Assembly (NCBI GenBank): GCA_963743325.1
Contig: CAVUOZ010000006.1
Location: 5,207-69,206 of the forward strand
Length of the DNA: 64,000 bases
Reading direction: 5' to 3'
Source: an uncultured Ignavibacteria bacterium
Lineage (GTDB): Bacteria > Bacteroidota > Ignavibacteria > Ignavibacteriales > Ignavibacteriaceae
Positions 3,197 through 58,428 of the stretch are shown here, in pieces (the first letter of the stretch is position 1; each line of letters opens with the position of its first letter). Position numbers and translations under genes: made by a program. The notes under the pieces were generated by a model. The model had not been told where the DNA came from, did not search any database, and worked only from the letters and a program-made list of their open reading frames with translations.

Positions 3197-3201
3197 ATAA
3201 A

Positions 3202-4926: not shown

Positions 4927-4930
4927 AACT

Positions 4931-31722: not shown

Positions 31723-31731
31723 CTTAATTGA

Positions 31732-31768
31732 GGGAGTAAACTAAAAAAAGTTTACTCCCATTTCTTTT
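31732..31768 (+). terminator. Rho-independent terminator or attenuator after the CBM9-like gene
   Basis: Perfect 10-bp stem gggagtaaac / gtttactccc with an A-rich loop, followed by atttctttt. Confidence 0.55.
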
Positions 31769-31825
31769 GGTAAGAGGATTTATTTCTTCTGTATAACATT
31801 TTTTATGACAAACTATTAGATATAC

Positions 31826-34474: not shown

Positions 34475-34483
34475 GTTCATGTT

Positions 34484-37639: not shown

Positions 37640-37653
37640 AACGGGTTTGTGTT

Positions 37654-38691: not shown

Positions 38692-41070
38692 ATGCCCCTC
38701 TTTGAAAATAAATATGGATATTTCTCAGATGATGGAAATGAGTATATAATTACTACTCCCCAAACTCCAAAACCGTGGATCAATGTGATCTCCAACGGCG
38801 AATATGGTTTGGTAATCTCCCAAGCCGGCGGAGGATTTAGTTGGCTCACGCATTCGGAATTGAATCGTTTGAATAGATGGCATCAAGACCTTGTTCAAGA
38901 TAATTGGGGTAAATATATTTATATAAAGGATAATACTACAGGTGATATTTGGAGCCCTACCTGGCAGCCGGTTAAAAAAGATCTTGATTCCTTTAAGTGC
39001 AGACACGGGATAGGTTATACAATCTTTGAGACTATTTACCACAAAATTAAAATTGAATTGATTTTATTCGTCCCTTTTGAAGAAAGTATCGAAATATGGG
39101 ATTTAAAGATTTATAATTTGAGAGAACAGAGTGTTGATTTATCACTCTTCACTTATTTTGAATGGTGTCTCGGTTCGTCTATGGATCATCACCGCGAGTT
39201 TCATAAATGTTTCATTGATGTACAATTTGATCGAGAATGTAATGGACTATTAGCTCGAAAACGAATTTGGGAAATTCCTACAGGGGATAGAGGATATTGG
39301 AATACAGAATATCCATATACTGGATTTTTATCGAATAATAAAAAAGTTTCCGCTTACGATAGTGATAAATGTTCCTTTCTCGGACAATATGGTTCCCTTC
39401 AAAAACCCATTAGTTTGATGGAAGGCAAACTTTCACAATCTACCGGTATGTGGGGAGATCCTGTTGCCTGCTTAAATAATCATATCAAGATTAAAAATAA
39501 ATCTTCTTTCAGAATAGTTTATACTGCCGGATTAAAAAAAAATAGAGCTGAGATAGTCTCATCGATTCAAAAATTTAAAAATTTAAAAAATGTCGATGCC
39601 GCCTTTTTAGAAATCAAAGATAAATGGAAAACAATGCTTGGAAACCTTGAGATTGAAACTCCTGATAAAGCTATGAACTTGATGGTTAATACATGGCTTC
39701 CATACCAGGCTATATCCGGAAGACTATGGGGAAGGACAGCATATTATCAACAAAGTGGTGCATACGGATTTAGAGATCAACTGCAGGATAGCCTGATATT
39801 CTTAACAATTGATCCCAAAGAAACAAAGAAACAAATCCAGCTTCATGCACGTCATCAATTTTTTGATGGAACGGTCCTCCATTGGTGGCATCCTATAACC
39901 GAACTCGGTTTAGCAACAAAAATGACTGATGATTTGCTATGGCTTCCTTTCCTTGTCATTGAGTATATCAAGGAATCAGCAGACTACGAATTTCTAAATG
40001 AATTAGAACCATATTATGACTTGAAAAATGAAACAGGGACAATATTTGAACATTGTGTTAAGGCAATTGATAAGGTACTATCACGATTTACCGAACGAGG
40101 TTTGCCCCTTATCGGAGCAGGTGATTGGAATGACGGAATTAGTGCGGCCGGACTTGAGATGAAAGGAGAGTCGATTTGGTTGACGGAATTTATGTATTTA
40201 ATCCTGACCAAATTCTCAAAGATTGCTAAAAAATTAAATCAAGATTATTATTCCGAAAAATATGAATTAGCTGGAGAGAAACTTCAGATTTCTTTCAATA
40301 AAATTGCGTGGGATGGAGAGTGGTATTTTCGTGGAACAAAAGATGATGGAGAAAAATTTGGGAGTGCTAAAAATTCTGAAGGACAAATATATCTTAACCC
40401 TCAGGTATGGGCGGTAATAAGTAATATAGCACCTAAAGAGAAACAAATAAAAGCAATAAATTCTGTTGAAAAAATACTGTTAAAGAAAAATGGTTGCTTG
40501 TTGTTGTATCCTGCATATTATAACCCGGACAAATTTATTGGTTATTTAACACGCTATGCTCCCGGAAGGAGAGAGAATGGAGGAGTGTATACTCATGCAT
40601 CAACATGGGCCATAATAGCGCTCTGTAAACTCGATAGGGACGCGATTGCATATGATGTCTTCAAAAGATTATGTCCTATATATAATTCTCAGCATCCAGA
40701 TGTTTATGAAGTCGAACCATATGTGACACCCGGAAATATTGACGGACCTGATTCAAAATTTTATGGGAGAGGCGGATGGACATGGTATACAGGTTCAGCT
40801 ACATGGTATCAAAAAGTTATCGTTGAATGGATCCTTGGAATACGAGCTTGCGAAGAGGGATTATTGATTGATCCGCATATTCCATTAAAATGGGATAAGT
40901 TTAAAATAAGAAGACTATTCAGGGGAACTATCTACCTAATCCAATTTAATGTACCAGAGGATTCCAAAGGAATAGTTGATTTAATAAATGTCGATGGTGA
41001 TAAAATACAGGGAAATATTATCACTCCATTAAATAAAGCAATATGTGAGGTAGAGGTAATAATTCGTTAA
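38692..41070 (+). CDS. GH94 glycoside phosphorylase (cellobiose/beta-oligoglucan phosphorylase family), cytoplasmic
   Basis: Colinear with cellobiose phosphorylase as I recall that sequence. Matching blocks: YGYFSDDGNEYIITTPQTPKPWINV, RHGIGYT, GFRDQLQD, catalytic-Asp block LPLIGAGDWNDG, RENGGVYTHASTW and GWTWYTGSATW. No signal peptide. Confidence 0.8.
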   Translation: MPLFENKYGYFSDDGNEYIITTPQTPKPWINVISNGEYGLVISQAGGGFSWLTHSELNRLNRWHQDLVQDNWGKYIYIKDNTTGDIWSPTWQPVKKDLDSFKCRHGIGYTIFETIYHKIKIELILFVPFEESIEIWDLKIYNLREQSVDLSLFTYFEWCLGSSMDHHREFHKCFIDVQFDRECNGLLARKRIWEIPTGDRGYWNTEYPYTGFLSNNKKVSAYDSDKCSFLGQYGSLQKPISLMEGKLSQSTGMWGDPVACLNNHIKIKNKSSFRIVYTAGLKKNRAEIVSSIQKFKNLKNVDAAFLEIKDKWKTMLGNLEIETPDKAMNLMVNTWLPYQAISGRLWGRTAYYQQSGAYGFRDQLQDSLIFLTIDPKETKKQIQLHARHQFFDGTVLHWWHPITELGLATKMTDDLLWLPFLVIEYIKESADYEFLNELEPYYDLKNETGTIFEHCVKAIDKVLSRFTERGLPLIGAGDWNDGISAAGLEMKGESIWLTEFMYLILTKFSKIAKKLNQDYYSEKYELAGEKLQISFNKIAWDGEWYFRGTKDDGEKFGSAKNSEGQIYLNPQVWAVISNIAPKEKQIKAINSVEKILLKKNGCLLLYPAYYNPDKFIGYLTRYAPGRRENGGVYTHASTWAIIALCKLDRDAIAYDVFKRLCPIYNSQHPDVYEVEPYVTPGNIDGPDSKFYGRGGWTWYTGSATWYQKVIVEWILGIRACEEGLLIDPHIPLKWDKFKIRRLFRGTIYLIQFNVPEDSKGIVDLINVDGDKIQGNIITPLNKAICEVEVIIR

Positions 41071-41232
41071 TAATAATCTGATTTTTAATTTAATTACAAA
41101 GAACAATAAGCTTACTTTATAAGAGAATTAGTGTCAATAAACAAATTATTTGATTTTGACTTCATTATTTGATTTAAAGAATTTCGTTTAATCTCTATTA
41201 TCGGGTAAATTTCCCAACAGTTAGAATCAATT

Positions 41233-41439
41233 ATGCAATATTTGAATTTCATAAAAATGCCTGGTAAAAAATCTCTAAATGGAACGTGGAATTATATTGA
41301 AGATCAAAATGATAAATACGGAATAAACTTCATTATGAATATATCCGCGGCTTCGGATAAATTCAAATCAATTGATAGTCCATCGAACTTGGAATCAGGT
41401 GGATTACAAAATTATAATGGTAGTGTTGGGTATTCATAA
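41233..41439 (+). pseudogene. N-terminal fragment paralogous to the GH2 gene at 54125
   Basis: KKSLNGTWNYIEDQNDKYG...SIDSPSNLESGGLQNYNGSVGYS aligns with IKSLNGSWNYATDAEDKLTYG...NIPVNWEHAGLHNFSGSIWFA of the intact GH2. The fragment stops after 68 codons. Confidence 0.5.
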
Positions 41440-41558
41440 TTTGAGAGTTGGACGAAATAAAAATCGTCGTCATGCCTATCGATATTAATAAAAGCAATAG
41501 TCTTTTTGTTTAGGAATTTGAAATTACATAAAAAAAATAATTAGAATGGAGTAAGTAT

Positions 41559-43964
41559 ATGAAAAAGACAATAACTTACATTTTGTTTTCTTTTCTGTTA
41601 TTTACTTTAAAAGTAAATGCCCAGAGTCCTTATCTATTCTTCAGTGACAGTCCTGATAACACTTTTTACGACTGGAGCTGGGGATTTGTTAATTCCCCAA
41701 GTTTATTAGAGCGGGTAGGTGAAAAATTTCCTGTAGATACAGCACATCATTATTCGGGAATAAATAGTTTAAAACTCCACTGGACTTCGATCTCCACCGG
41801 AGATTGGGGGATCGCCTGTGCAGCAATTGGAACGCCATGGCCGACTTGGGATGTAACAATTATGGACTCGGTTCAATTGTGGGTATATACCGAACAGCCC
41901 GTTGATCATTTGAAATTACCTGTAATGTATCTTGAAGACAATAACAATCATAAATCGATTCATTTGAAAATTTCTGATTATTCCTCAGATATTCCCGCAA
42001 ATATTTGGACTAAAGTATCCTTACCAATTGATGTTTTCATTAATGGCTCAAGCGGTGTTGATTTTACCATAATCAAAACAATATTCTTTGGCCAGGATGA
42101 AGCTGATGGGGAGGAGCATACATTTTCCCTTGATGAAATTAGGATAATTTCAAATGGAACTGCAAGTGATACCATTCCGCCAGCTTCTCCCGTAGGTTTA
42201 TCTGCAGAAGGATTCGACAGACATATAGATTTAAAATGGACATTAAATACTGAACCAGATGTAGCGGGTTATAATATTTTTAAGCAGCAGGGAACCGATT
42301 TTGTAATTATAGGCGTAGCTTCCAGGGATGATAGATATTATACGGATTTTATTGGACAAAGCGGCGTCACCGGTACTTATAAGATAACTGCATTTGATAA
42401 TAATCAGAATGAATCCGGATTTTCGGGAATGGCAAGTTCTTCAACGCAAGAATTAAGTGATGATGAACTTCTTGATATGGTCGAAGAAGCAACCTTTAGA
42501 TTTTTTTGGGATTATGCCCATCCTTATTCAGGGTTAGCAAGAGAAAGAACTGGTTCAGGTAATACTGTAACCACCGGTGGATCAGGTTTTGGAATTATGG
42601 CTATACTTGTGGGAATTGAAAGAGGATTTATAACCAGGGAACAGGGAGCCCAAAGAATGCTTCAAATATTAAATTTTCTTTCTACTGAGGCTGACAGGTT
42701 TCATGGTGCCTTGCCTCATTGGTTAGATGGTGAAACTGGTCACATAATTCCATTCAGCCAGTATGATGACGGTGGTGATCTTGTGGAAACTGCTTTTATG
42801 ATGCAAGGTCTCCTTGCTGCTAAACAATATTTCGACCAAAATAATACAACAGAAAATGTTATCAGAATTTATATTAATGGTTTGTGGGAGGCCGTGGAAT
42901 GGAGCTGGTATAGGAAAGATCCACCGACTAATTATCTTTACTGGCATTGGTCACCCAATTATGGCTGGACTATGAATTTTCCACTAATTGGCTGGAATGA
43001 AACTATGATAACATACTTGTTAGCAATAGCATCACCGACTTACAGTATTCCCTCAAATTTATATTATGATGGCTGGGCAAGCAGTTCAAACTATACTAAC
43101 GGCAATTCGTTTTATGGTATACCTTTGGAGGTAGGATGGGATTTCGGTGGTCCCTTATTTTTCGCTCATTATTCTTTTTTGGGATTTGATGCAAGAAGTA
43201 AAAAAGATAGCTTCACAAACTACTTTATAAATAATTATCACCATACCTTAATTAATCGAGCCTACTGCATCGATAATCCTGGCGGCCACACAGGTTATTC
43301 AAGTTCTCTTTGGGGATTAACATCCTCAGATGATCCTTATGGATATAGTGCTCATTCTCCTTTTAATGGCGATAATGGAACTATAACCCCAACAGCAGCA
43401 CTTTCCTCAATGCCATACACGCCGGTTGAATCTATGGAAGTTCTTAAAAATCTCTATAGAAATTACGGAGATCATATTTGGGGAATTTACGGGTTTAAGG
43501 ATGCAATGAATTTAGAGCAAAATTGGTACGCATCAAGTTATTTAGCTATAGATCAAGGTCCAATTATCGTCATGATTGAGAATGCGCGGACACAATTATT
43601 ATGGAACAAATTTATGGCGAATCCTGAAATTCAGCCTATGCTTGATGCAATTGGTTTTGTACCTGATTATACTGACGTAAAAATTAAATCCGAAATGCCG
43701 GAGCAATATTTATTAAAGAACAATTATCCTAATCCGTTTAACCCGGGCACAACTATCGAATTTCAAATCGCTAAAACCGGATTCGTTACTCTAAAAATAT
43801 ATGATGTTTTGGGAAACGAAGTTAAAACTCTTGTCAGTGAAGAAAAAAAACCGGGAGACTATACAATAAAATTTGATGCAGGCTCACTTTCAAGCGGAAT
43901 ATATTTTTATGTACTGAAAGCAGGCAGACAAATATTTTCCAAGAAGATGTGCCTGATTAAATAA
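41559..43964 (+). CDS. Secreted multidomain GH144-like (PF10091 glycoamylase-like, candidate endo-beta-1,2-glucanase) with N-terminal CBM-like domain, FN3 and T9SS C-terminal domain
   Basis: Signal peptide and an FN3-like segment (PPASPVGLSAEGFDRHIDLKWT...YNIFK). The (alpha/alpha)6-type core has ATFRFFWDYAHPYSGLARERTG, GGSGFGIMAI, WNETMITYLLAIASP and YLAIDQGPIIVMIENART. The C-terminal domain is NYPNPFNPGTTIEF...GIYFYVLKAG...KKMCLIK. Confidence 0.55.
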   Translation: MKKTITYILFSFLLFTLKVNAQSPYLFFSDSPDNTFYDWSWGFVNSPSLLERVGEKFPVDTAHHYSGINSLKLHWTSISTGDWGIACAAIGTPWPTWDVTIMDSVQLWVYTEQPVDHLKLPVMYLEDNNNHKSIHLKISDYSSDIPANIWTKVSLPIDVFINGSSGVDFTIIKTIFFGQDEADGEEHTFSLDEIRIISNGTASDTIPPASPVGLSAEGFDRHIDLKWTLNTEPDVAGYNIFKQQGTDFVIIGVASRDDRYYTDFIGQSGVTGTYKITAFDNNQNESGFSGMASSSTQELSDDELLDMVEEATFRFFWDYAHPYSGLARERTGSGNTVTTGGSGFGIMAILVGIERGFITREQGAQRMLQILNFLSTEADRFHGALPHWLDGETGHIIPFSQYDDGGDLVETAFMMQGLLAAKQYFDQNNTTENVIRIYINGLWEAVEWSWYRKDPPTNYLYWHWSPNYGWTMNFPLIGWNETMITYLLAIASPTYSIPSNLYYDGWASSSNYTNGNSFYGIPLEVGWDFGGPLFFAHYSFLGFDARSKKDSFTNYFINNYHHTLINRAYCIDNPGGHTGYSSSLWGLTSSDDPYGYSAHSPFNGDNGTITPTAALSSMPYTPVESMEVLKNLYRNYGDHIWGIYGFKDAMNLEQNWYASSYLAIDQGPIIVMIENARTQLLWNKFMANPEIQPMLDAIGFVPDYTDVKIKSEMPEQYLLKNNYPNPFNPGTTIEFQIAKTGFVTLKIYDVLGNEVKTLVSEEKKPGDYTIKFDAGSLSSGIYFYVLKAGRQIFSKKMCLIK

Positions 43965-44031
43965 GTGTATTAAATCAAAGTCGATATCGAAGTTTTTAAT
44001 TGTTAAAAAATTTATTCAGACAAAAATTTTG

Positions 44032-44549
44032 ATGAATAAAATTTATTTTTCCAGAAAGCTGACTTTTCTAATTTTATTGTTTGGGGGTTTTTCCATATTA
44101 CAGCAGCAAATGAATATCCTCTGGAATTCCATAAATCTCAGGAAGATCTTTTTTATTTAAAATCAAACAATGAACAATTAGTTTTGCAATATTGTAAGAC
44201 TATCCAGGATAATTTTTCCGGTGAAACTTTGCTGATTCCCGCAATGCAGGATAATTCTTACCAGACATTTAATAATGCAGTTACGGCCATGGTGTTTATA
44301 TTGTCTGGAGGAAAGGGGAGGGCAGAAAGTTATTCAGTCAAAAAACCGCAGCTGGTTGAGATAATTATTTACGATATTCTCGGTAATCAGATCAGGACAT
44401 TATTTAATGGATTTGCTTTACCGGGTTTAAACAGGATCCGGTGGAATGGTGAAAATAATATGGCTCAGAATGTTAACTCAGACGTATACATATACAGAAT
44501 TATTTCCAGTGAATCAGTCCTGAGCGGCAAAATAGTGTTAAATAAATGA
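44032..44549 (+). pseudogene. Collapsed gene remnant: signal peptide, a short N-terminal piece of unknown identity and a T9SS C-terminal domain
   Basis: ATG 44032 encodes MNKIYFSRKLTFLILLFGGFS. A frame change leads to ANEYPLEFHKSQEDL...NNAVTAMVFILSGGKGRAE, which runs directly into a T9SS tail (LVEIIIYDILGNQIRTLFNG...DVYIYRIIS...GKIVLNK). No catalytic domain lies between them. Confidence 0.45.
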
Positions 44550-44634
44550 ACCTTTCCTGCCGGAATTTTTCCTGGTGAGACAATGCTGCCGGAATAGAAT
44601 TAAATAATAATATTATTAATTATTCAGGTTACAT

Positions 44635-45990
44635 ATGAAAAAGTCCCTTTTGATTTTCTTTCTTTTGTTTACTCATTCTGCATTCTCACAGTATGTTCCG
44701 ACAAAGGAAGAAAATGCGTTTCTTGATACGCTGCAGTACAAATCCTTTCTTTTTTTTATGAACGAAATTAATCCTGAAAATGGTCTTGTAAAAGACCGCA
44801 CTACAGAGGAATCAGCCTCATCAATTGCTGCGGTCGGGTGGGGGGTTGCAGCCTGGGCTATCGGTGCTGAGCACAACTGGATCACCAGGGAGAAAGCTGC
44901 AGAGCTTACATTGGATCTTGTCAGATTTTTGAATAATTCCGAACAAAGTGCAAAACCGGATGCTACCGGTTACAATGGCTTCTATTATCATTTTCTTAAC
45001 ATGAAAACAGGAAAGCGTGAATGGAATTCTGAGCTTTCGACGATTGATACTGCATTTCTCCTGGCAGGAATACGATTTGCAACCCAGTATTATCATCGTG
45101 ACAATGAGGCAGAAAAGGAAATCCGTGAACTTGGTGATAAACTTACAAACAGGGTAAACTGGGACTGGACTATTATTGGAAAATCAAAAAATAAGGGTTA
45201 TGAAGGATTAATTGTAATGGCATACAATCCGGATGACGGTTTGGGTGATTTCGGCTGGTTCGGTTATACTGAAGCTCTTTATTTGTATGTGCTGGCTGCA
45301 GGGACAAATCTCAGCAGCCCTATGAAAGCATATGAAGCCTGGCTTTCAGAATATGATTGGAAGGAACCTTATGAAGGACTTGCTCACGTAATTTTTCCGC
45401 CGCTATTCGGACACCAGTATTCTCATATGTTCATCGATTTCAGAGGCTTGGCTGATAAATATATGAGAGAAAAGGGAATCGATTATTTTGAAAATTCAAG
45501 AAGAGCGACATTGTCCAATTGGAATTATTGTATCCAGAATCCTGGAGGGTGGACTGGTTATGATTCTCTGACCTGGGGGATAAGTGCATGTGACGGTCCC
45601 GGAGATTTTGAGAGCGATAGAAAAAGATTTTACGGATACGCCGGACGAGGCGCCAGCGGACCTGATGATGTTGTTGCAGATGACGGGACCATTACACCCG
45701 AAGCTGCAAGCGGATCAATACCTTTCGCACCGGAAATCTGTATCCCTGCGCTGAAGAATATGTATGATAAATATGGCGATAAAGGATTATGGGGTAAGTA
45801 CGGATTAAAAGATGCTTTTAATCTTACAGTTAACTGGTACGATAAAGATTATTTAGGGCTTGATGAAGGACCCATTGTAATTATGATTGAAAACTACAGA
45901 ACCGGACTGATCTGGAAATTTTCTATGAAAGATCCGGTAATAATAAGAGGACTTGAAAGATTGGGATTTGCAAAAACAGAAAATAAGTGA
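44635..45990 (+). CDS. Secreted GH144-like (PF10091 glycoamylase-like) enzyme, single domain
   Basis: Signal peptide. Motifs: SFLFFMNEINPENGLVKDRT, SIAAVGWGVAAW, STIDTAFLLAGI and YLGLDEGPIVIMIENYRTGLIW. It is a paralog of the core of 41559-43964. Confidence 0.55.
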   Translation: MKKSLLIFFLLFTHSAFSQYVPTKEENAFLDTLQYKSFLFFMNEINPENGLVKDRTTEESASSIAAVGWGVAAWAIGAEHNWITREKAAELTLDLVRFLNNSEQSAKPDATGYNGFYYHFLNMKTGKREWNSELSTIDTAFLLAGIRFATQYYHRDNEAEKEIRELGDKLTNRVNWDWTIIGKSKNKGYEGLIVMAYNPDDGLGDFGWFGYTEALYLYVLAAGTNLSSPMKAYEAWLSEYDWKEPYEGLAHVIFPPLFGHQYSHMFIDFRGLADKYMREKGIDYFENSRRATLSNWNYCIQNPGGWTGYDSLTWGISACDGPGDFESDRKRFYGYAGRGASGPDDVVADDGTITPEAASGSIPFAPEICIPALKNMYDKYGDKGLWGKYGLKDAFNLTVNWYDKDYLGLDEGPIVIMIENYRTGLIWKFSMKDPVIIRGLERLGFAKTENK

Positions 45991-46027
45991 GCATAAACTC
46001 CATCGCGCAACACAGGAATATGACCTT

Positions 46028-48241: not shown

Positions 48242-48282
48242 CGCCGCATATAAAAACTTAAATCATTGCCGGAGTTTGGAAA

Positions 48283-50067
48283 ATGAAAAGTCGAATAAAG
48301 ATCAGATTTCACAAATATTATCAGTTAAAAAAGGTAGTTTTAATTCTCATTCTCCTTCTCAATATTTTAACCTTGAATTCCTGTTCGGAAAAAAACGATA
48401 AACCTTCCTCTACGTACTGTAATCCCTTGAATATTGATTATACCTACAGTATAGTAAATACCTCCCAAGGATTATCATACAGATCCGGTGCCGATCCCTC
48501 GGTAGTGGAATTCCGAGGAGAGTATTACATGTTTGTCACACGTTCATTTGGTTACTGGCATTCAAAGGATCTGAGGGACTGGGATTTTATACATCCGCAA
48601 TCCTGGTATTTTGAATCTTCAAATGCGCCCACTGCCTGGTCATACAAGGATTCGATTTTAATCGCACTTGGAAATCCATCCGAATGGCAGTGTATTATTT
48701 ATACCGACGATCCCCAAAAAGGAACATGGAGAGGTGTTCCTTCATTAATCCCTACGGATGTTCATGATCCCGCCCTGTTTGTAGATGATGACAACCGCGT
48801 TTTTCTTTATATAGGTTCTTCAAATGTTTACCCGATAAGGGGAGTAGAACTGGATCCCCGAAACTACTTTCTGCCTAAAGGAGACTTTACAGAACTGATA
48901 AGACTAAATCCAAAAGAGCACGGATGGGAAAGATTCGGGGAAAATCATTCAGATACTGTGATTGCCGGTTATCTTGAAGGTGCGTGGATGACCAAACATA
49001 ATGGTATCTACTATCTGAAGTATGCTGCTCCCGGAACTGAATGGAATGTATATGGCGACGGAGCATATACATCTGACAATCCCCTCGGTCCTTATTCTTA
49101 TGCTGAATATAACCCTTTTTCCTATAAACCTGCCGGATTTATTACCGGAGCAGGACACGGGAGCACGGTTCAGGATCCTTACGGGAACTTTTGGCATTTC
49201 GCAACAATGGTTGTCGGGGTTAATTATTATTTTGAACGCCGCATTGGAATGTTTCCGGCGGGGTTTGATAAGGATGATGAACTCTATACGAATACAGCTT
49301 ATGGAGATTATCCCCACTTCCTTCCCTCAGCTGAAAGGAAAAACCTGGATGGCTTATTTGCCGGGTGGATGCTTTTATCCTTTAACGAACCTGCAAGTGC
49401 TTCATCTTTCCTTGGGGATATGATACCCGGGAATGTCACCGATGAAAATATTAAAACTGTCTGGTCTCCAAAGACAAATTCTTCACATGAATGGATTACC
49501 ATTGATCTGCAAAAAAAATGTGAGGTTAAAGCAGTACAGATAAATTATTCCGACTATAAGTCAAATATTTTTGGCAAACGCGATACCATATATCATCAGT
49601 ATCTCCTCGAATATTCCCTGGATGGAAATAACTGGGATATTCTGGTCGATAAAAAGAAAAATAGTAAAGATGTCCCGAATGATTATGTTGAACTGCCTAC
49701 TCCACAGAAAGCCAGGTTTATAAGGTTTACAAATATTCATAGTCCTACTCCATATGTGGCAATATCGGATTTGAGAATATTCGGTAATGGTTACGGAGAA
49801 AAGCCTGCAGAACCTGATAATTTTTCTGTTGAGCGAAAAGGAGATAGAAGAACAGCGGAACTTAAATGGAATAGTATAATAAATGCACAGGGTTACATGG
49901 TTTATTTTGGAATTCAACCGGAAAAACTTTACAGTTCTGTGATGGTTTATAAGGATACCACTTACCGTTTAAATTCACTGAATGTTAAACCGGATTATTT
50001 TTTCGCTTTAGAAGCATTCAATGAAAATGGAATCTCAAAAAGAACGAACGTAATTAAAAGTAATTAA
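48283..50067 (+). CDS. Lipoprotein GH43-like beta-propeller hydrolase with discoidin (F5/8 type C) and FN3-like C-terminal domains
   Basis: Lipobox LTLNSC. Motifs: YCNPLNIDY...GADPSVVEFRGEYYMFVT, HDPALFVDDD and LEGAWMTKHNGIYYLKYAAPG. The discoidin block reads TDENIKTVWSP...EWITIDLQK...ARFIRFTNIH...ISDLRIFG. Confidence 0.6.
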   Translation: MKSRIKIRFHKYYQLKKVVLILILLLNILTLNSCSEKNDKPSSTYCNPLNIDYTYSIVNTSQGLSYRSGADPSVVEFRGEYYMFVTRSFGYWHSKDLRDWDFIHPQSWYFESSNAPTAWSYKDSILIALGNPSEWQCIIYTDDPQKGTWRGVPSLIPTDVHDPALFVDDDNRVFLYIGSSNVYPIRGVELDPRNYFLPKGDFTELIRLNPKEHGWERFGENHSDTVIAGYLEGAWMTKHNGIYYLKYAAPGTEWNVYGDGAYTSDNPLGPYSYAEYNPFSYKPAGFITGAGHGSTVQDPYGNFWHFATMVVGVNYYFERRIGMFPAGFDKDDELYTNTAYGDYPHFLPSAERKNLDGLFAGWMLLSFNEPASASSFLGDMIPGNVTDENIKTVWSPKTNSSHEWITIDLQKKCEVKAVQINYSDYKSNIFGKRDTIYHQYLLEYSLDGNNWDILVDKKKNSKDVPNDYVELPTPQKARFIRFTNIHSPTPYVAISDLRIFGNGYGEKPAEPDNFSVERKGDRRTAELKWNSIINAQGYMVYFGIQPEKLYSSVMVYKDTTYRLNSLNVKPDYFFALEAFNENGISKRTNVIKSN

Positions 50068-50094
50068 TCCTGGTATTTATCATATTTAAAAAAA

Positions 50095-53000
50095 ATGAAA
50101 AATATATTAAAAATTATACCCGCTCAATTAATTTATCCTGAATCATTCATTTCCGGAGATCGGGTTTTGCCGCGGGCTTTACATTCAATTATTCAATCAT
50201 TCATTTTAATGGTTTTGCTCACTGCTAATCTTTATCCGCAGACCTTACTTGACGATTTTGAATCTATCAATCATTGGAAGATTTACAAATCTGATGGAGT
50301 AGAGACCTCTGTCTCTCTTGATGAGGGGCATTCAGGTAAGGCTATCAGGTTTGATTACAATTTCACAAAGGGGACCGGATACGGAGGGATTCAGAAAATA
50401 ATCCCCTTAAATCTTCCTGAGAATTATCAATTCACTTTTTATCTCAAAGCTGAATCACCTGCGAATAACCTTGAGTTTAAACTCCTTGACAGTACAGGGC
50501 AGAATGTCTGGTGGGTTAATAGCAGGAATTATACTTTCCCGCGCGAATGGACTAAGATAAAAATCAAAAAAAGGCATATAAATTTTGCATGGGGACCAAC
50601 TGAGGACAAAATATTAAAGAGAATTGATAAACTTGAATTTACAATATCATCTTATGTCGGAGGGAAAGGAACCATCTGGATAGAGGATCTGAAATTCGAA
50701 GAACTTCCCCCTGAAGATAATTCCCCTATACAACCTTCGGCTGCAGTATCCTCGGAATTGGAACAAAGGTATTCAGGTAAAAATCTGGTGGATAATAATC
50801 CGGGTTCTGTGTGGAAAAGCAGTATAAAAGAAAATCAGAATATTATACTGGACCTGCAAAAAAGAAGAGAGTTGGGAGCAATTACAATCGACTGGGACAG
50901 GGCAGACTATGCCAGAGAATTTAATGTTTACCTATCTAATGCTAAAGGTAATTGGGAGAAGGTCTATTCCATCAGTGACGCAGCGGGGAACAGAAGCTAC
51001 ATCCGCTTAGCAGAAGAAGACGCTGTAAAAATTAAAATTGAATTACTAAGAAGCAGCAGGGGGCAAGGGTATGTAATTAAGGATATTCGAGTCAGGAACG
51101 TTGATTATTCCGCAGATATTAACAGGTTATTTATAAACATAGCCAAAGATTATCCCCGTGGATATTACCCGAGATATTTAACTGAGGAAGGAACTTTCTG
51201 GACTATAACCGGGGTGAATAACGATGTAAAGGAAGCTTTGATAAATGAAGATGGTATGGTTGAAGTGGATAAAAAGCATTTCTCAATAGAACCATTCCTA
51301 TCCGTGGATGGAAAATTTGTAACCTGGAATGATGTAGAAAAAGAACAATCGCTGGCCGGGGACAATCATCCTCTGAAAAGAACAAATTATCTGCCGGTTC
51401 CGTCTGTCCGCTGGAACTATAATGACTTGTTACTGGAAACAAGTATTTTCGCGGCGGGTGATGCAAATATAAATTCTGTACTCTATCTGATCTATAAATT
51501 GAAAAACAATTCAACGAAACAACAAAATGGAAATCTTTATGTGGCAGTAAGACCTTTCCAGGTCAACCCGTATTATCAGTGGTTAAATATAACGGGAGGG
51601 GCTGCGGAAATTGATTCAATTAAATATAAAGACGGCAGAGTATTTATTAATGATGATAAGGTTGTAATACCTGTGACAAAAGCAGATCAATTTGGTGCTT
51701 CAGGCTTTGATACCGGTGATATAACATCATTCCTGGCTCAAAATACAATTCCTGATAAAAAAACAATCATTGATAAAGGAAATCTGGCAAGCGGATGCCT
51801 GAGTTATTCATTTAATCTGAAACCGCAGGAAGAAAAGACTGTTTACCTCGCTGTACCATTTTATAAATATAATACGGGCAGTGGGGCGGGTATGTCTATG
51901 GAACAAATAACTGAAGAACAGATCAGAGACCTTTATGCCCGGACAATTGATTTCTGGAAATCAGAGGTTAATCATATAAAATTTAACCTGCCTGAATCTT
52001 CTGACAGAATAATTAACACATACAAATCCAATCTTGCCTATATTTTAATCAATAGGGATAACGCGGGGATTCAGCCAGGTTCAAGATCTTATGAAAGATC
52101 ATGGATAAGGGACGGCGCATTAACATCATCAGCATTATTAAAATCGGGCATTGTAAGCGAAGTGAAGGATTTCATCATATGGTATGCTGCGCACCAGTAC
52201 GAGAACGGGAAAGTCCCTTGTGTAGTTGATACAAGAGGTCCTGATCCTGTACCGGAAAATGACAGTCACGGTGAATTCATTTACCTGATAAAAGAATATT
52301 TTAACTTCACAAAAGACACTACTTTTCTGCACAGGATGAATAAGAATATACTGAAAGCAATAGACTATATGGATACACTTATTTCGCAGAGATCCACCGG
52401 CCATTTCAAAAACGGGAATGACAGTGTTCGCGCTTATTATGGAATAATGCCTGAGTCAATCAGTCACGAAGGCTATTCTGCAAAACCGATGCATTCATAC
52501 TGGGATGATTTCTTCACGATGAAGGGATTAAAGGATGCTGCGGAGATTGAAAGAATATTGGGCGAAGAAATTTCTTATGAAAAAATCAAAAAGATGAGAG
52601 ATACTTTCAGAGAAAATTTATATAACTCACTCGATCTGGCAATTAAAACGAGAAAGATTGATTATTTACCAGGCTGTGTTGAGCGTGGCGATTTTGATGC
52701 AATCTCCACCACGATTGCAATATCTCCGTGTAATGAGCTTCCTGATCTTCCGGAACCTTATGCCCGGAGTACATTTGATCAGTATTATGAATTCTTTGAA
52801 AAAAGGAGAGATAATAAAATTGATTGGACTGCCTACACACCTTACGAAAACCGGCTTATAGGTTCATTCATTTTTTTGGATCAGCCTGAACGCGCACACG
52901 AACTGATTAAGTTTTTTCTGAATGACCAAAAACCTGATACCTGGAATGACTGGGCTGAAGTTGTATGGAAGAAAGAAAGATATCCCGGTTATATAGGCGT

Positions 53001-53379
53001 TATGCCGCATACATGTGTTGGTTCTGATTTTTTGAATGCTGTCCGTTCAATGTTCGTTTACGAATCAGAATTTGATTCTTCACTGGTTGTCGCTGCTGCT
53101 TTATATAAAGATTGGGTTGATTCCCCTGACGGGATGTCGGTTGAAAATCTTCCGACATATTATGGTGAGTTATCCTATTCTATTAAGAAGAACGGAAATA
53201 AATATGACATTAAAATTTACGAGAATGTATCAATCCCTCCCGGAGGCATAATTCTTAAAAATATTTATGCAGATAAACTTCCTGCATCAGTAATGGTAAA
53301 TGGAGATCAAATAAAAAGTTTTGATAAGAAAAATATCCGGGTAGATAAGTTCCCGGCATTGGTAGAATTATCGTTTTAA
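50095..53379 (+). CDS. 1094-aa multidomain protein: CBM-like and discoidin N-terminal domains plus a GH15-like (alpha/alpha)6 catalytic-type domain
   Basis: The discoidin block reads GKNLVDNNPGSVWKSS...IILDLQKRRELGAITIDW...FNVYLSN. The (alpha/alpha)6-type region has YERSWIRDGALTSSALLKSG, ENGKVPCVVD and HSYWDDFF, reminiscent of the glucoamylase/glucodextranase fold. Confidence 0.5.
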   Translation: MKNILKIIPAQLIYPESFISGDRVLPRALHSIIQSFILMVLLTANLYPQTLLDDFESINHWKIYKSDGVETSVSLDEGHSGKAIRFDYNFTKGTGYGGIQKIIPLNLPENYQFTFYLKAESPANNLEFKLLDSTGQNVWWVNSRNYTFPREWTKIKIKKRHINFAWGPTEDKILKRIDKLEFTISSYVGGKGTIWIEDLKFEELPPEDNSPIQPSAAVSSELEQRYSGKNLVDNNPGSVWKSSIKENQNIILDLQKRRELGAITIDWDRADYAREFNVYLSNAKGNWEKVYSISDAAGNRSYIRLAEEDAVKIKIELLRSSRGQGYVIKDIRVRNVDYSADINRLFINIAKDYPRGYYPRYLTEEGTFWTITGVNNDVKEALINEDGMVEVDKKHFSIEPFLSVDGKFVTWNDVEKEQSLAGDNHPLKRTNYLPVPSVRWNYNDLLLETSIFAAGDANINSVLYLIYKLKNNSTKQQNGNLYVAVRPFQVNPYYQWLNITGGAAEIDSIKYKDGRVFINDDKVVIPVTKADQFGASGFDTGDITSFLAQNTIPDKKTIIDKGNLASGCLSYSFNLKPQEEKTVYLAVPFYKYNTGSGAGMSMEQITEEQIRDLYARTIDFWKSEVNHIKFNLPESSDRIINTYKSNLAYILINRDNAGIQPGSRSYERSWIRDGALTSSALLKSGIVSEVKDFIIWYAAHQYENGKVPCVVDTRGPDPVPENDSHGEFIYLIKEYFNFTKDTTFLHRMNKNILKAIDYMDTLISQRSTGHFKNGNDSVRAYYGIMPESISHEGYSAKPMHSYWDDFFTMKGLKDAAEIERILGEEISYEKIKKMRDTFRENLYNSLDLAIKTRKIDYLPGCVERGDFDAISTTIAISPCNELPDLPEPYARSTFDQYYEFFEKRRDNKIDWTAYTPYENRLIGSFIFLDQPERAHELIKFFLNDQKPDTWNDWAEVVWKKERYPGYIGVMPHTCVGSDFLNAVRSMFVYESEFDSSLVVAAALYKDWVDSPDGMSVENLPTYYGELSYSIKKNGNKYDIKIYENVSIPPGGIILKNIYADKLPASVMVNGDQIKSFDKKNIRVDKFPALVELSF

Positions 53380-53395
53380 CAAAAAATGAATTTGT

Positions 53396-54124
53396 ATGAA
53401 AAAAAATATATTAATCTTACTTACTCTGGCGTCATTATTTCTATATGCCCAGCAGGACTCAATAAGACAAAGGGGTGAATTATTGGAAAAAGAAATAACA
53501 GTTAAAGTTTCCCTTCAATATCTTGTTTATCTTCCTCCAGGTTATGATAATAACGATATGAACTGGCCGCTGGTGTTATTCCTTCATGGATCTGGGGAAA
53601 GGGGGGATGATATAAACCTGGTAAAGCTGTATGGTCCGCCTTTGCTTGTCGATCAGGGAGTAGATTTTCCCTTCATTCTGATATCTCCTCAATGTCCATT
53701 AGGACAGAGGTGGGATCCATTGGATTTATCTGTGCTGCTTGATGCAGTGGAAAAGATTTACCGTGTTGATCCGAATAGAGTTTATTTAACAGGTTTAAGT
53801 ATGGGCGGTGAAGGAACGTGGAATCTTGCTATGGCTCAACCGGACCGCTTTGCGGCTATTGCACCTGTTTGCGGCAGAACAGGTTCTCTATACCTGGATG
53901 CTGATAGGATTAAAAGTCTTCCTATCTGGGTTTTTCACGGAGCAAAAGATGATGTTGTTCCGATTTCCGAATCTCAAAGAATGGTTAAAGCATTAAAAGA
54001 GTACGGGAGCAGCAATCAATTTACAGTTTATCGGGAAGCTAATCACAATGCATGGACAGAAACTTATTATAACCAGGAGCTATATAAGTGGCTGCTGGAA
54101 CATCACCTTGATGAGAATAAATAA
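53396..54124 (+). CDS. Secreted alpha/beta-hydrolase esterase (phospholipase/carboxylesterase-type)
   Basis: Signal peptide. Motifs: LVLFLHGSGERGDD, nucleophile elbow GLSMGG, and VFHGAKDDVVP plus the H of the catalytic triad (ANHNAW). Confidence 0.7.
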   Translation: MKKNILILLTLASLFLYAQQDSIRQRGELLEKEITVKVSLQYLVYLPPGYDNNDMNWPLVLFLHGSGERGDDINLVKLYGPPLLVDQGVDFPFILISPQCPLGQRWDPLDLSVLLDAVEKIYRVDPNRVYLTGLSMGGEGTWNLAMAQPDRFAAIAPVCGRTGSLYLDADRIKSLPIWVFHGAKDDVVPISESQRMVKALKEYGSSNQFTVYREANHNAWTETYYNQELYKWLLEHHLDENK

Positions 54125-56203
54125 ATGTATTCACACGGAGAAATAAAATCACTTAACGGCAGCTGGAATTATGCGACAGATGCTGAAGACAAGCTGACCT
54201 ATGGACAGGTGAATAAACTTTTTTATGAAAAGGGGACAAAGAAAATTAATATCCCAGTAAACTGGGAGCACGCCGGGTTGCACAATTTCTCAGGAAGCAT
54301 CTGGTTCGCCAGAACATTTAAGTCGAATCATTCAACCTCAAAATTGAATATCCTGGAATTTAAGGGAATAGATTATTTCGCTTCAGTCTGGCTGAATGAT
54401 ACTTTTCTGGGTAAACACGAAGGCTATTTTCAGTCATTTTATTTTGATATTTCGGATATGCTGAGAGAATCAGGGAAAAATTTTTTAATAGTCAAGGTTA
54501 ATTCACCCCTGGAAGAGCCGAAGAAAGTCTGGCCGTATAGAAAGAGGTTGATAAAAGGAATCTTCAATCATCACGACTGCAGGCCCGGAGCATGGAGCTA
54601 TAAATACGGGCAGGATCAGAATACAGGTGGTATATGGAACGAGGTAGTACTTCATTCCGTTGATGAAGTTTTTATTGAAAATGTGCGTGTAAAACCCAGG
54701 ATATATTTTAATCAGAATAAAGCATTATTAAATCTCTCAGTTTCATTTTATAAAAGAACTAAGGCAGTAATTAAGGATAAAATGGAAATAAGGGTCACGT
54801 CTCCATCAGGGAAAATAATAACTCTTAAAAAGGACATTCACTTAAGGGGAATAAAGCATGATATAAATTTTATGGTGGTAATTAAAAATCCTGAATTGTG
54901 GTGGAGCTGGGATCTTGGGAAGCCGAATCTTTACGAATTAAACATATCGGGTAAATTCATAATTATTAAAAATATAAAATTCGGAATCAGGGAAGTAAGG
55001 ATAAATGAGAAAAAAGAATTCTACCTAAATGGGAAAAGACTTTTTCTCAGGGGTACAAACGTAATTCCTGCACTATTTTTATCAGAATTAAATGAGAAAA
55101 AAATCGAAGAGCAGTTAGGTTTAATCAAGGATGCAAATATAAATATTATAAGAATGCATGCCCATGTTAACAGATCTGAGTTTTATGAAGAATGCGACAA
55201 ACAGGGAATACTTATCTGGCAGGATTTTGCTCTGCAGTGGACTTATGATGAATCACAGGAATTTATTATAAATGCTGTAGCACAAATTATGGATATGGTG
55301 GCGCTGCTTTTTAATCATGCCTCTATAGCATTCTGGTGCTGCCATAATGAACCCGGTAAACAGATTGAATCCCTTGATCCATTTCTCTTTGATGCGGTTC
55401 GTAGTATTGATAAAAGCAGAATAATCAGAGTTGCTTCCAATTATGAGGAACACCCGTACGATGGCTGGTACTGGGGAAATAAAGAACATTTCGCTGCCAG
55501 GCCGATGGGACCCTTGGTCACTGAATTTGGTGCGCAGGCTTTACCGGAGCAAAAGTCATTGAAAAAAATAATTCCCGGAACTGATTTATCCGATCCATCA
55601 AAAGAAAGCTGGGCATATCATGATTTTCAGTATGAGCAGACATTTAATATTGCCGATATTAATCGGGGTAAAAATTTAAATGAATTTATAAAGAATTCTC
55701 AGGATTACCAGTCAGAATTGCTAAAAACAGCAATTGATTTTTACCGCAGGGGAAAGAATAAAGATATAACCGGGATATTTCAATTTATGTTTATTGACTG
55801 CTGGCCGTCAATAACCTGGTCGGTTATAGACTTTTATGGCAGGAAAAAGAAGGGGTACTTCACACTTCAAAAAGGCTTTCAACCATTATATGTGTCTGTC
55901 AGGGCAGGACAAAGAAAATATTTTTCAGGTCAGACCCTGAATATCGATTACTGGGTAATCAATGATTTTCATGAGATGTTTAATTCATGTAAAATCGTAT
56001 TTAGGATTGGAGAAAAAACATTATTCAAGCTCCCGGTTAAAAATATTCCGGAAGATTCGATTACTTATTTTAACTGGGGAACAAATGAAATTAAACTTCC
56101 TCATAATCTGAGTAAAGGGAAGTATAAAATGGATGTTGAAATAATTCAAAATAAAATTGTTTTATCAAGGAACGATTTTGAAATTGAAATTGTGAACTGG
56201 TAA
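54125..56203 (+). CDS. GH2 glycoside hydrolase (beta-mannosidase/beta-glucosaminidase-like), no signal peptide
   Basis: The sugar-binding domain has FSGSIWFARTF and YFASVWLNDTFLGKHEGYF. The TIM barrel has LNGKRLFLRGTN, IIRMHAHV, ILIWQDF, acid/base context WCCHNEPG and nucleophile context VTEFGAQA. Confidence 0.75.
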   Translation: MYSHGEIKSLNGSWNYATDAEDKLTYGQVNKLFYEKGTKKINIPVNWEHAGLHNFSGSIWFARTFKSNHSTSKLNILEFKGIDYFASVWLNDTFLGKHEGYFQSFYFDISDMLRESGKNFLIVKVNSPLEEPKKVWPYRKRLIKGIFNHHDCRPGAWSYKYGQDQNTGGIWNEVVLHSVDEVFIENVRVKPRIYFNQNKALLNLSVSFYKRTKAVIKDKMEIRVTSPSGKIITLKKDIHLRGIKHDINFMVVIKNPELWWSWDLGKPNLYELNISGKFIIIKNIKFGIREVRINEKKEFYLNGKRLFLRGTNVIPALFLSELNEKKIEEQLGLIKDANINIIRMHAHVNRSEFYEECDKQGILIWQDFALQWTYDESQEFIINAVAQIMDMVALLFNHASIAFWCCHNEPGKQIESLDPFLFDAVRSIDKSRIIRVASNYEEHPYDGWYWGNKEHFAARPMGPLVTEFGAQALPEQKSLKKIIPGTDLSDPSKESWAYHDFQYEQTFNIADINRGKNLNEFIKNSQDYQSELLKTAIDFYRRGKNKDITGIFQFMFIDCWPSITWSVIDFYGRKKKGYFTLQKGFQPLYVSVRAGQRKYFSGQTLNIDYWVINDFHEMFNSCKIVFRIGEKTLFKLPVKNIPEDSITYFNWGTNEIKLPHNLSKGKYKMDVEIIQNKIVLSRNDFEIEIVNW

Positions 56204-57513
56204 TGATAGGAATTAAAAACATATTGCATAAAGTGAAATTTGCCAATTTGCCCATATTAATTTTTCTTTGTGTTGTATTATTTGGCTGCAGAGGGAACAA
56301 GGGCAACAATATTGTGTTAAAATTCTGGGCAATGGGAACCGAGGCTGAATATGTAACCTCGCTTGTCCCCGAATTTGAAAAGGAAAATTCCGGGATAAAA
56401 GTAGATGTTCAGCAGATACCCTGGAATGCTGCACAGGAAAAACTTGTGACAGCTTTTGCCAGTGATAATACACCGGATATTTGTCAGCTTGGTAACACGT
56501 GGATTCCCCAATTCTCCTCTCTAAAGGCGATTATCAGATTAGATGAATTCATTAAAAATTCTAAGATAATTAAAAAAGAAAATTATTTTACCGGAATCTG
56601 GGATACTAATGTTATGGATTCATCGGTTTATGGAATCCCATGGTATATTGATACTAGGATAATGTTTTATCGTACAGATGTATTTGAAAAAGTCGGGTAT
56701 AAAAATCCTCCAAGATCCTGGGATGAATTGTATGATCTTTGTAAAAAAATAAAAGCACTTCATCCCGGCGAAGACAAATATGCTATTTACCTCCCTACTA
56801 ATGAATGGAATGCTTTTATAATTTTTGCTTTAGAGAATAAGGCTGACCTTCTAAAGAACAATGATTCAGAGGGGGACTTTAGATCAGATAAATTTAAGGA
56901 AGCATTTAAGTTTTTGACGAATTTTCATAAAGAAAAGCTGGCTCCTCTTGGAATTTCACAGGTGACAAATGTATACCAGGCTTTAATGGAGGAATACTTC
57001 TCTATTTATATATCGGGACCATGGAACATCAATGAGTTCAAAAAATGGATGACAGGAGACCTGGCTGATAAATGGTCTACTGCTCCAATGCCCTCAAAAA
57101 CAGGGGATCATTTTCCCGGTGTTTCGCTGGCAGGCGGTTCAAGTCTGGTAATATTTAAAGATTCAGAGCATAAAAATGAAGCCTGGAAATTCATCGAGTT
57201 TCTCTCACAAACTTCCACACAGCTGGAGTTTTACAGGCTTTTATACAATCTGCCCGCAGTAAAAGAAGCGTGGAAAGATACATCGCTGGCAAATAATAAA
57301 TATATAAAAGCTTTTTATCAGCAGTTTGATAATGTAGTTGCTACCCCCAAAGTGCCTGAATGGGAGCAGATTGCTTTCGCTAAGGTTCAGCAGTATGCAG
57401 AGATTGTTGTCCGTGGTGCAATGACAATTGATAAAGCTTTGGCCGCACTGGATAATGATGTTGATAAGATTCTTGAAAAAAGAAAATGGTTACTTAGTAA
57501 AGAAAAAAGATAA
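56203..57513 (+). CDS. ABC sugar transporter substrate-binding lipoprotein (family 1 SBP)
   Basis: Lipobox VLFGCRG. Motifs: VLKFWAMG, IPWNAAQEKL, DICQLGNTW, GIPWYIDTR and GGSSLVIFK. Confidence 0.8.
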   Translation: MIGIKNILHKVKFANLPILIFLCVVLFGCRGNKGNNIVLKFWAMGTEAEYVTSLVPEFEKENSGIKVDVQQIPWNAAQEKLVTAFASDNTPDICQLGNTWIPQFSSLKAIIRLDEFIKNSKIIKKENYFTGIWDTNVMDSSVYGIPWYIDTRIMFYRTDVFEKVGYKNPPRSWDELYDLCKKIKALHPGEDKYAIYLPTNEWNAFIIFALENKADLLKNNDSEGDFRSDKFKEAFKFLTNFHKEKLAPLGISQVTNVYQALMEEYFSIYISGPWNINEFKKWMTGDLADKWSTAPMPSKTGDHFPGVSLAGGSSLVIFKDSEHKNEAWKFIEFLSQTSTQLEFYRLLYNLPAVKEAWKDTSLANNKYIKAFYQQFDNVVATPKVPEWEQIAFAKVQQYAEIVVRGAMTIDKALAALDNDVDKILEKRKWLLSKEKR

Positions 57514-58426: not shown

Positions 58427-58428
58427 AA

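Follow-up and report, generated by a model that had tools for sequence, protein, structure and literature searches.

I found that a 64,000-nucleotide stretch of DNA (hereafter, the window) from an uncultured Ignavibacteria bacterium (assembly GCA_963743325.1, contig CAVUOZ010000006.1, positions 5,207 to 69,206 of the forward strand) very probably encodes a LacI-controlled beta-1,2-glucan utilisation system of an Ignavibacteria type, judging from its sequence. The large open reading frames (ORFs) at window positions 28891-59238 are all co-directional (+) with short gaps, and a gene for a LacI-family regulator lies at their head. An earlier note on this DNA had proposed, for positions 38692-56203, a beta-1,2-glucan pathway with a phosphorolytic step. 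The genes in that span are real, but the locus is wider, extending upstream to the LacI gene at 28891 and downstream to an ATP-binding cassette (ABC) importer that ends at 59238. The proposed pathway is supported by a pair of GH144 proteins, by the tree and motifs of a GH94 phosphorylase, by a GH3 beta-glucosidase, and by a binding protein resembling Lin1841 of Listeria. As in beta-1,2-glucan (SGL) gene clusters, GH144, GH94, beta-glucosidase, and Lin1841-type binding protein with transporter genes occur together, and their order is kept in relatives. An ORF check and Pfam, NCBIfam, and PDB sequence searches found all genes described here at the coordinates given, on the + strand. Every pathway step below is drawn from homology, from the gene neighbourhood, and from N-termini inspected by eye. 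With this locus, a published class of SGL gene clusters gains a further member, and the pathway itself is not new. What is new here is the tree and motif evidence on GH94, the mutual exclusivity of GH2 and GH35, the fusion of an esterase with an orphan enzyme, and the loci of that enzyme without GH144. The source genome (3.98 Mb, 14 contigs, 98% complete) has its nearest homologues of the GH94 and orphan proteins in metagenome-assembled genomes (MAGs) of Ignavibacteriales and Ignavibacteria.

The two GH144 genes encode proteins of 801 residues (41559-43964, +) and 451 residues (44635-45990, +). They match PF10091 with 231 and 236 bits, respectively, against a cut-off of 27; neither fell into another family, the outcome named beforehand as fatal to the proposal. 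In the PDB search, the 801-residue protein matched BDI_3064 of Parabacteroides distasonis (5Z06) with 586 bits across residues 24-697 and, in its catalytic part, the Chitinophaga endo-beta-1,2-glucanase CpSGL with 475 bits. Its N-terminal region is homologous to that of BDI_3064, and it resembles this sophorohydrolase in architecture over the full length. The type IX secretion system (T9SS) tail ascribed to it earlier was found (PF18962, 41 bits; TIGR04183, 39 bits), while the FN3 domains ascribed to it had no Pfam match, and a CBM30 match barely passes (27.6 bits; cut-off 27). Since it has both a signal peptide and the T9SS C-terminal tail, it is predicted to be displayed on the cell surface or secreted. 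The nearest solved relative of the 451-residue protein is XcSGL of Xanthomonas (8XUL, an E239Q mutant; 323 bits), a GH144 enzyme with detected beta-1,2-glucanase activity (PMC12102758). The protein has a signal peptide and no T9SS tail, and is thus probably periplasmic; it is a candidate XcSGL-like endo-beta-1,2-glucanase.

The residues E239, F286, and Y367 of XcSGL, which define the clan, correspond to E211, F268, and Y330 of CpSGL; E211/E239 is the general acid, and E142 of CpSGL is the likely base (PMC12102758). By alignment onto the 8XUL chain numbering (offset 14), their equivalents are E213, F258, and Y335 in the 451-residue protein, with D138 as the base candidate, and E481, F534, and Y596 in the 801-residue protein, with E410 as the base candidate. 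Since the acid, the base candidate, Phe, and Tyr are all kept, both proteins look catalytically competent. The characterised GH144 enzymes are all specific for beta-1,2-glucan (PMC12102758).

The GH94 gene (38692-41070, +) encodes a protein of 792 residues that matches PF17167 (397 bits) and PF06165 (254 bits) and has no signal peptide, as expected of the cytoplasmic phosphorylase proposed for this position. Its PDB matches rank as follows: the synthase of cyclic beta-1,2-glucan (Cgs) with 511 bits, cellobiose phosphorylase (CBP) with 434, chitobiose phosphorylase (ChBP) with 373, cellobionic acid phosphorylase with 270, cellodextrin phosphorylase with 67, laminaribiose phosphorylase with 50, and LpSOGP with 42. 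Since the margin of Cgs over cellobiose phosphorylase is small, a tree was built from GH94 sequences of related genomes together with the Cgs domain of the same genome, the paralogue groups being labelled by their PDB score ranking. The window GH94 and eight orthologues form one clade (support 100/99). This clade joins the GH94 domains of five Cgs-like proteins, including one from the same genome, on a branch with support 100/100, and three free-standing paralogue groups (CBP/ChBP-like) fall across that branch. One representative of the largest paralogue group scores 494 bits with CBP and 371 with Cgs, the reverse of the ranking for the window GH94.

The alignment agrees with the tree. The locus clade and Cgs share a three-residue deletion before GFRDQLQD and the motifs GxGDWNDG (NGDWNDT or RADWNDC in the paralogues), RENGGxYTHA, and GGWTWYTGSA, all of which are absent from the paralogues. 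The catalytic loop of the window protein reads GAGDWNDG and is Cgs-like. By the branch and these signatures of the Cgs domain, the protein does not cluster with the cellobiose phosphorylases, an outcome that would have counted against the proposal, and it lies outside the cellobiose/chitobiose phosphorylase clade. [quoted passage not shown] R361 (GFRD), D478 (GDWNDG), H635 (YTHA), and T700 (YTGS) are present, in motifs kept in all groups. From CBP and ChBP structures, I take D478 to be the catalytic Asp and R361, H635, and T700 to belong to the phosphate site. The window GH94 is best read, from its sequence, as a free-living sister of the phosphorylase that controls chain length in cyclic glucan synthase. 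In Cgs, this domain sets the chain length of beta-1,2-glucan via phosphorolysis (PMC10901819). The Cgs-like protein of the same genome is a 2922-residue open frame outside the window (contig C4, about 186091-190707, -) with a PF10091-like middle domain and a C-terminal GH94 domain. The latter and the window GH94 share about 35% identity, and the same gene occurs in several relatives.

The beta-glucosidase and the importer complete the set. The GH3 protein (45953-48241, +) is of the BglX type, as proposed; it matches the NCBIfam equivalog NF011678 with 747.5 bits against a cut-off of 666, and its PDB matches are 9urf (676 bits), BT_3567 (658), and Lin1840 (539). Translation probably starts at the ATG at 46028, ahead of a signal peptide. 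The importer genes (56203-59238, +) encode a binding lipoprotein (56203-57513) and two permeases (57428-58426 and 58429-59238) with PF00528 in both. The binding protein matches 3UOR (395 bits), an uncharacterised binding protein of Xanthomonas, and Lin1841 (242 bits), which binds beta-1,2-glucooligosaccharides in Listeria. The permease genes are not followed by an ATPase gene. The first permease has no ATG past the stop codon of the binding-protein gene (region 57428-57513); either it begins at a TTG and overlaps that gene by 86 nucleotides, or its start codon is an unusual one.

By eye, signal peptides were recognised in both GH144 proteins, the GH3, and the esterase, and lipoprotein signals in the GH43 and the binding protein, while the GH94 and the GH2 have neither. 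These N-termini agree with the order of compartments put forward in the earlier note, from surface cleavage through TonB-dependent uptake, periplasmic trimming, and ABC import to cytoplasmic phosphorolysis. The 801-residue, BDI_3064-like GH144 displayed via T9SS would cut the glucan at the cell surface, and the TonB-dependent receptor module would take in fragments or whole cyclic glucans. In the periplasm, the 451-residue GH144, the orphan enzyme, the esterase, and the GH3 may trim the chains and clear what the GH144 enzymes cannot handle. The Lin1841-like binding protein and the two permeases would then bring in beta-1,2-glucooligosaccharides, from which the cytoplasmic GH94 may take off glucose units by phosphorolysis, giving glucose 1-phosphate. 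The GH2 would handle the leftover sophorose, a step performed elsewhere by the GH35 enzyme IaSGT (Ignavibacterium album), the GH3 enzyme Lin1840 (Listeria), or the GH1 enzyme SGR_2426 (Streptomyces).

Is this set of genes conserved? A survey of 40 genomes of relatives placed the orphan and GH2 genes on the same contigs as the GH94 orthologue and the GH144 genes. ORF maps of eight clusters revealed a core order of LacI, GH94, GH144 (451 type), orphan, GH2, GH144 (801 type), binding protein, and two permeases, and this order is kept across families of the order. In relatives, a LacI gene and the GH94 orthologue are direct neighbours, and the variable parts of the eight clusters are the TonB module, GH3, esterase, and GH43.

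SGL gene clusters have been published for Chloroflexus (PMC13731917) and, closer to the window, for Ignavibacterium album (IALB_1177-1187; Kobayashi et al. 2022, J Biol Chem, PMC8861115). As far as the available portion of the latter paper goes, the window resembles the I. album cluster in phylum, in the two GH144 genes, in the TonB-dependent transporter, in the Lin1841-homologous binding protein with an ABC importer, in the proposed flow through the cell compartments, and in the Cgs-type GH94, IALB_1177 being described there as a homologue of the C-terminal phosphorylase domain of Cgs. On the other hand, the window has a GH2 in place of the I. album GH35 beta-1,2-glucosyltransferase IaSGT, which is the sole characterised enzyme of that cluster in the same portion (PMC8861115). 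It also has a GH3 beta-glucosidase that the I. album cluster lacks according to those pages, and they do not mention a GH43, an esterase, or an orphan enzyme for that cluster (PMC8861115).

The lin1839-1843 locus of Listeria innocua shares with the window the cytoplasmic phosphorolytic end step, the GH3 homologue, the binding-protein homologue, and the ABC importer. It differs in that the window GH94 is short (about 790 residues) and unlike LpSOGP in domains and score, and in that the window GH3 is periplasmic. Since the window organism is Gram-negative, its locus has outer-membrane uptake and secreted GH144 stages, unlike that of Listeria. In Bacteroidota-type loci such as L071, a Chitinophagaceae MAG locus, the orphan family likewise comes directly after an XcSGL-like GH144, sometimes with the same GH43, but those loci have a long SOGP-type GH94, a GH35, and a major facilitator superfamily (MFS) transporter where the window has a short GH94, a GH2, and an ABC importer. 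As to Cgs itself, its phosphorylase domain is the best solved relative of the window GH94 and its sister in the tree, sharing the motifs and the deletion; the window protein, in contrast, is stand-alone and soluble, lies in a catabolic locus, and lacks the GP1 and Rossmann-like subdomains.

Several points weigh against this beta-1,2-glucan assignment. The compartments were judged by eye from the N-termini, and the GH94 tree contains no characterised sequences. The window GH94 is about 35-38% identical at most to characterised GH94 enzymes, and it lacks the SOGP-specific domains, so that its preferred chain length could be that of sophorose or longer. The GH2 has only distant characterised relatives, the nearest being beta-mannosidases, one of which is its best PDB match (146 bits). 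On plain beta-1,2-glucan, no role is known for the GH43, the esterase, or the orphan enzyme. The function of IALB_1177 is itself only predicted in the portion of the paper at hand (PMC8861115), and a literature search found neither a report of its activity nor the term "sophorose phosphorylase".

The orphan gene (50095-53379, +) encodes a protein of 1094 residues whose label as GH15-like did not survive the searches. No Pfam GH15 match was found, and TIGR01577 gave 34.7 bits (E 7e-9) against a cut-off of 820.7. A search of the same genome with PF00723 at E 1e-20 gave no match either. Among 62 members of the orphan family, weak PF00723 matches occur in 38 (best E 1.4e-5), alongside other weak six-hairpin matches to the GH78 domain (41 members) and GDE_C (23). 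The N-terminus has a signal-like hydrophobic stretch at residues 30-45, and the true start codon is uncertain. It is followed by CBM4_9/CBM11-like and discoidin modules, and then by about 750 residues without a Pfam family. For residues 340-1094, there was no PDB sequence match and no Pfam family above threshold, and yet the family is large, with at least 734 cluster representatives at E below 1e-30.

An AlphaFold 2 model of residues 340-1094, built with 62 diverse sequences, reached a pLDDT of 92.6 and a pTM of 0.93. The Foldseek result of an earlier AlphaFold model was not trusted; it covered all 1094 residues with 30 close homologues and had a pLDDT of 68 in the catalytic region. In the better model, a beta-supersandwich is followed by a linker helix, a twelve-helix (alpha/alpha)6 barrel, and a C-terminal beta-sandwich. 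Foldseek placed GH94 phosphorylases at the top (TM-score 0.64 to CBP). After them came a GH15 dextran dextrinase, the Cgs phosphorylase domain, GH116, GH15 glucoamylase/glucodextranase, and GH65, with TM-scores of 0.57-0.59 for the GH15 structures. The identity in these alignments is about 9-13% overall and about 12% with the GH94 and GH15 structures. Profile alignment by hhalign gave a probability of 96% over 550 columns for GH94, 85% over 178 columns for GH15, and 0.3% for GH144; GH94 against GH15 with the same small profiles gave 7%. A W-I-R-D motif after the first barrel helix lines up with the W-x-R-D motif of GH15 in hhalign, and nine acidic residues are invariant among 32 sequences of 31-55% identity. 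The orphan protein shares the domain order of GH94 and GH15, beta-supersandwich plus (alpha/alpha)6, but is exported, carries two binding modules, and has no Pfam match to either family. Thus, the orphan family is a distinct unclassified member of this fold class, with GH94 as its nearest detectable relative, followed by GH15. Membership in the SGL clan (GH144, GH162, GH189, GH192-194) was rejected; in addition to the hhalign value for GH144, none of the 50 Foldseek matches listed is a structure of that clan.

The sequence suggests that the orphan protein is probably catalytic. The positions of the phosphate-binding His and Thr of GH94 are not retained in the profile alignment, which is of low reliability there. 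Because the protein is exported, has binding modules, and, as far as this weak alignment goes, lacks the phosphate-site residues, it is probably a hydrolase. An exported phosphorylase is unlikely on the same His/Thr positions.

What does the orphan enzyme act on? I collected 80 named loci of the orphan family, which come from Bacteroidota, Ignavibacteriota, Planctomycetota, Pseudomonadota, Calditrichota, Verrucomicrobiota, Myxococcota, Kryptoniota, and Gemmatimonadota, and counted neighbours within 10 kb in the 51 loci of at least 18 kb. A GH144 gene lies within this distance of the orphan gene in 44 of the 51 long loci. GH94 is present in 35, the best match being of the SOGP type in 17, of the window type in 16, and of the free-standing Cgs-domain type in 2. 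At least one of GH144, GH94, and the binding protein occurs in 48 of them, and the partner genes (GH144, GH94) were seen beside the orphan gene in loci from eight named phyla. The order in L071 is GH144, GH43, GH144, orphan, MFS transporter, GH35, SOGP, and GH3. Its GH94, the only one of the SOGP type that was checked, has the Pfam domains SOGP_N, SOGP_2nd, and SOGP_4th. L071 also encodes a 793-residue protein (2652-5030) with weak GH2_N and GH15 Pfam matches, which may be another unclassified six-hairpin enzyme. There are two kinds of natural fusion proteins. P0238 (1489 residues, 33 member sequences) joins an XcSGL-like GH144 to the orphan family, and in P0387 (1292 residues) the orphan family is fused with an esterase homologous to that of the window locus (53% identity). 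This gene association is strong evidence that the orphan family has beta-1,2-glucan, or something bound to it, as its substrate. The orphan enzyme is a candidate new glycosidase of beta-1,2-glucan breakdown.

A different arrangement was found in four loci of Gammaproteobacteria MAGs (L102, L110, L111, and L113), in which a free-standing GH94 gene for about 940-1240 residues comes next after the orphan gene. These GH94 proteins are 46-53% identical to the Cgs phosphorylase domain and have two supersandwich domains. No GH144 gene lies within 10 kb in any of the four, and ABC permease genes are present in L113 alone. L110 and L111 are titled Competibacteraceae or Competibacter. These loci may represent a different, simpler route of beta-1,2-glucan breakdown.

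The GH2 gene (54125-56203, +) encodes a protein of 692 residues, a GH2 enzyme as stated in the earlier note, in which four GH2 domains exceed their cut-offs (PF22666, 49 bits; PF02837, 45; PF00703, 38; PF02836, 46). The alignment revealed the motifs HNE409PG and TE467FG; I take E409 to be the acid/base and E467 the nucleophile, as is usual for GH2 enzymes. A single-copy orthologue is present in 16 of the 40 relatives. It adjoins another gene of the cluster in 15 of these, and the sixteenth sits on a 1.3-kb contig piece. In three relatives (G016, G020, and G022) the cluster has no GH2; instead, an IaSGT-like GH35 of about 707 residues, resembling the GLMA/IaSGT-type GH35 of L071, comes directly after the orphan gene. 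GH35 occurs in 18 of the 51 long loci and GH2 in 14, and no locus has both. Because the two are mutually exclusive at the same position, GH2 seems to have displaced GH35 non-orthologously. Thus, the GH2 is predicted from sequence to be a cytoplasmic beta-glucosidase or transglucosylase that processes sophorose. [quoted passage not shown]

A dead GH2 fragment lies between the GH94 gene and the long GH144 gene (41269-41487, +). In a tblastn search, this 5′ fragment was 39% identical over 75 residues to residues 8-77 of the GH2, with two stop codons (E 1e-5). Since the relatives G032, G027, and G029 keep an intact GH2 gene at this very position, the fragment is a remnant of an ancestral order GH94-GH2-GH144. 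In G015, which belongs to the same genus, the GH2 orthologue (L009, 8898-10966) is split into two overlapping ORFs of 228 and 499 residues by a frameshift or an assembly error.

Beta-1,2-glucans are mostly cyclic and serve Agrobacterium, Brucella, Rhizobium, and Xanthomonas as factors of symbiosis and virulence; how they are broken down in nature has been worked out only since 2014. If the present predictions hold, soil or sediment Ignavibacteria would have a complete route from the cell surface to the cytoplasm. That the orphan enzyme founds a new glycoside hydrolase family, as a hydrolytic offshoot of the GH94/GH15 fold, and that the GH2 is the first of its family to act on sophorose, is a joint proposal to which I give slightly less than an even chance. 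If it is true, the orphan enzyme does a step that GH144 cannot, such as the opening of cyclic, acylated, or alpha-1,6-closed glucans, or exo-cleavage, and in some Gammaproteobacteria it is the only extracytoplasmic depolymerase. The GH2 would then be a beta-1,2-glucosidase or transglucosylase in the place of the GH35 IaSGT. If characterised, the two could add a further family to CAZy and another specificity to GH2, and could provide tools to cut or tailor cyclic glucans.

The substrate may not be plain beta-1,2-glucan. The earlier note took the extra enzymes as a sign of a more decorated substrate, and this idea has gained support, since such loci in other phyla again contain the orphan enzyme, the esterase, and the GH43, and an orphan-esterase fusion exists. 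The glucan could be decorated or specially closed, for example as a succinylated or otherwise acylated cyclic glucan, a branched osmoregulated periplasmic glucan, or an alpha-1,6-cyclised beta-1,2-glucan, and the orphan enzyme, the esterase, and the GH43 would deal with the parts that GH144 and GH94 cannot. The esterase gene starts 17 nucleotides downstream of the orphan gene, the esterase and the GH43 accompany both the orphan gene and GH144 in those other phyla, and the two carbohydrate-binding modules of the orphan enzyme are like those of polymer-acting enzymes. Its fold is common to the alpha-glucoside families GH15 and GH65 as well as GH94, so that a cut at an alpha-1,6 closure is conceivable, although profile and fold place it closer to GH94, a family of beta-glucoside-acting enzymes, than to GH15. 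Moreover, most related clusters lack the esterase and the GH43 while the orphan gene and GH144 stay, and the sequence gives no clue to the substituent. I regard a decorated substrate as a real possibility, though somewhat less likely than not; it would refine the beta-1,2-glucan utilisation pathway rather than replace it.

Could the locus chiefly recycle the cyclic beta-1,2-glucan of its own cell instead of scavenging foreign glucan? The 2922-residue Cgs-like protein of the same genome would fit such a role. However, the T9SS-displayed GH144 and the TonB-dependent receptor module face outward, and synthase and locus are uncoupled in relatives: G006 and G012 carry the synthase but lack the locus, while G031 and G032 have the locus and no synthase among the matches listed. 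Recycling is therefore improbable. Another beta-glucan as the target (cellodextrins, laminarin, or mixed-linkage glucan), with the GH94 as a cellobiose or laminaribiose phosphorylase, is more improbable still. The size of the GH94 and its 434 bits against the Clostridium thermocellum CBP would suit this explanation, as would the finding that the BglX-type GH3 enzymes Lin1840 and BT_3567 also cleave beta-1,3 links, according to the part of the source available (PMC12369401). Against it, Pfam found no endo-glucanase of the GH5, GH9, GH16, GH17, or GH81 type in the locus, while the characterised GH144 enzymes act on beta-1,2-glucan only (PMC12102758). The 100/100 branch separates the GH94 from its CBP/ChBP-like paralogues, and its score with laminaribiose phosphorylase is a mere 50 bits.

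The remaining genes lie at the upstream end and in the middle of the locus. The regulator gene (28891-29901, +) matches PF00356 and PF00532. The outer-membrane uptake module that follows (29968-38664, +) consists, by Pfam, of four genes: its first gene encodes a 584-residue protein with a T9SS tail, and the others a TonB-dependent receptor (31826-34474), a 1051-residue surface protein (34484-37639), and a PorV-like barrel (37654-38664), all on the + strand. The same four-gene module accompanies the cluster in G015, G032, and G027. The GH43 gene (48283-50067, +) encodes a lipoprotein-like protein in which both the GH43 domain (PF04616, 80.5 bits against a cut-off of 32.2) and the discoidin (F5/8C) domain (PF00754, 58 bits) proposed earlier were found. 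It is divergent, with a best PDB match of only E 5e-7, and beta-1,2-glucan loci of Chitinophagales, Paludibacter, and Kryptoniota contain orthologues of it. The esterase gene (53396-54124, +) encodes a secreted alpha/beta-hydrolase, in line with its first annotation, with polyhydroxybutyrate-depolymerase/CE1-like matches in Pfam and NCBIfam; its homologues recur in loci of Saprospirales and Calditrichia. Finally, a 121-residue ORF (44184-44549) without a Pfam match lies between the two GH144 genes.

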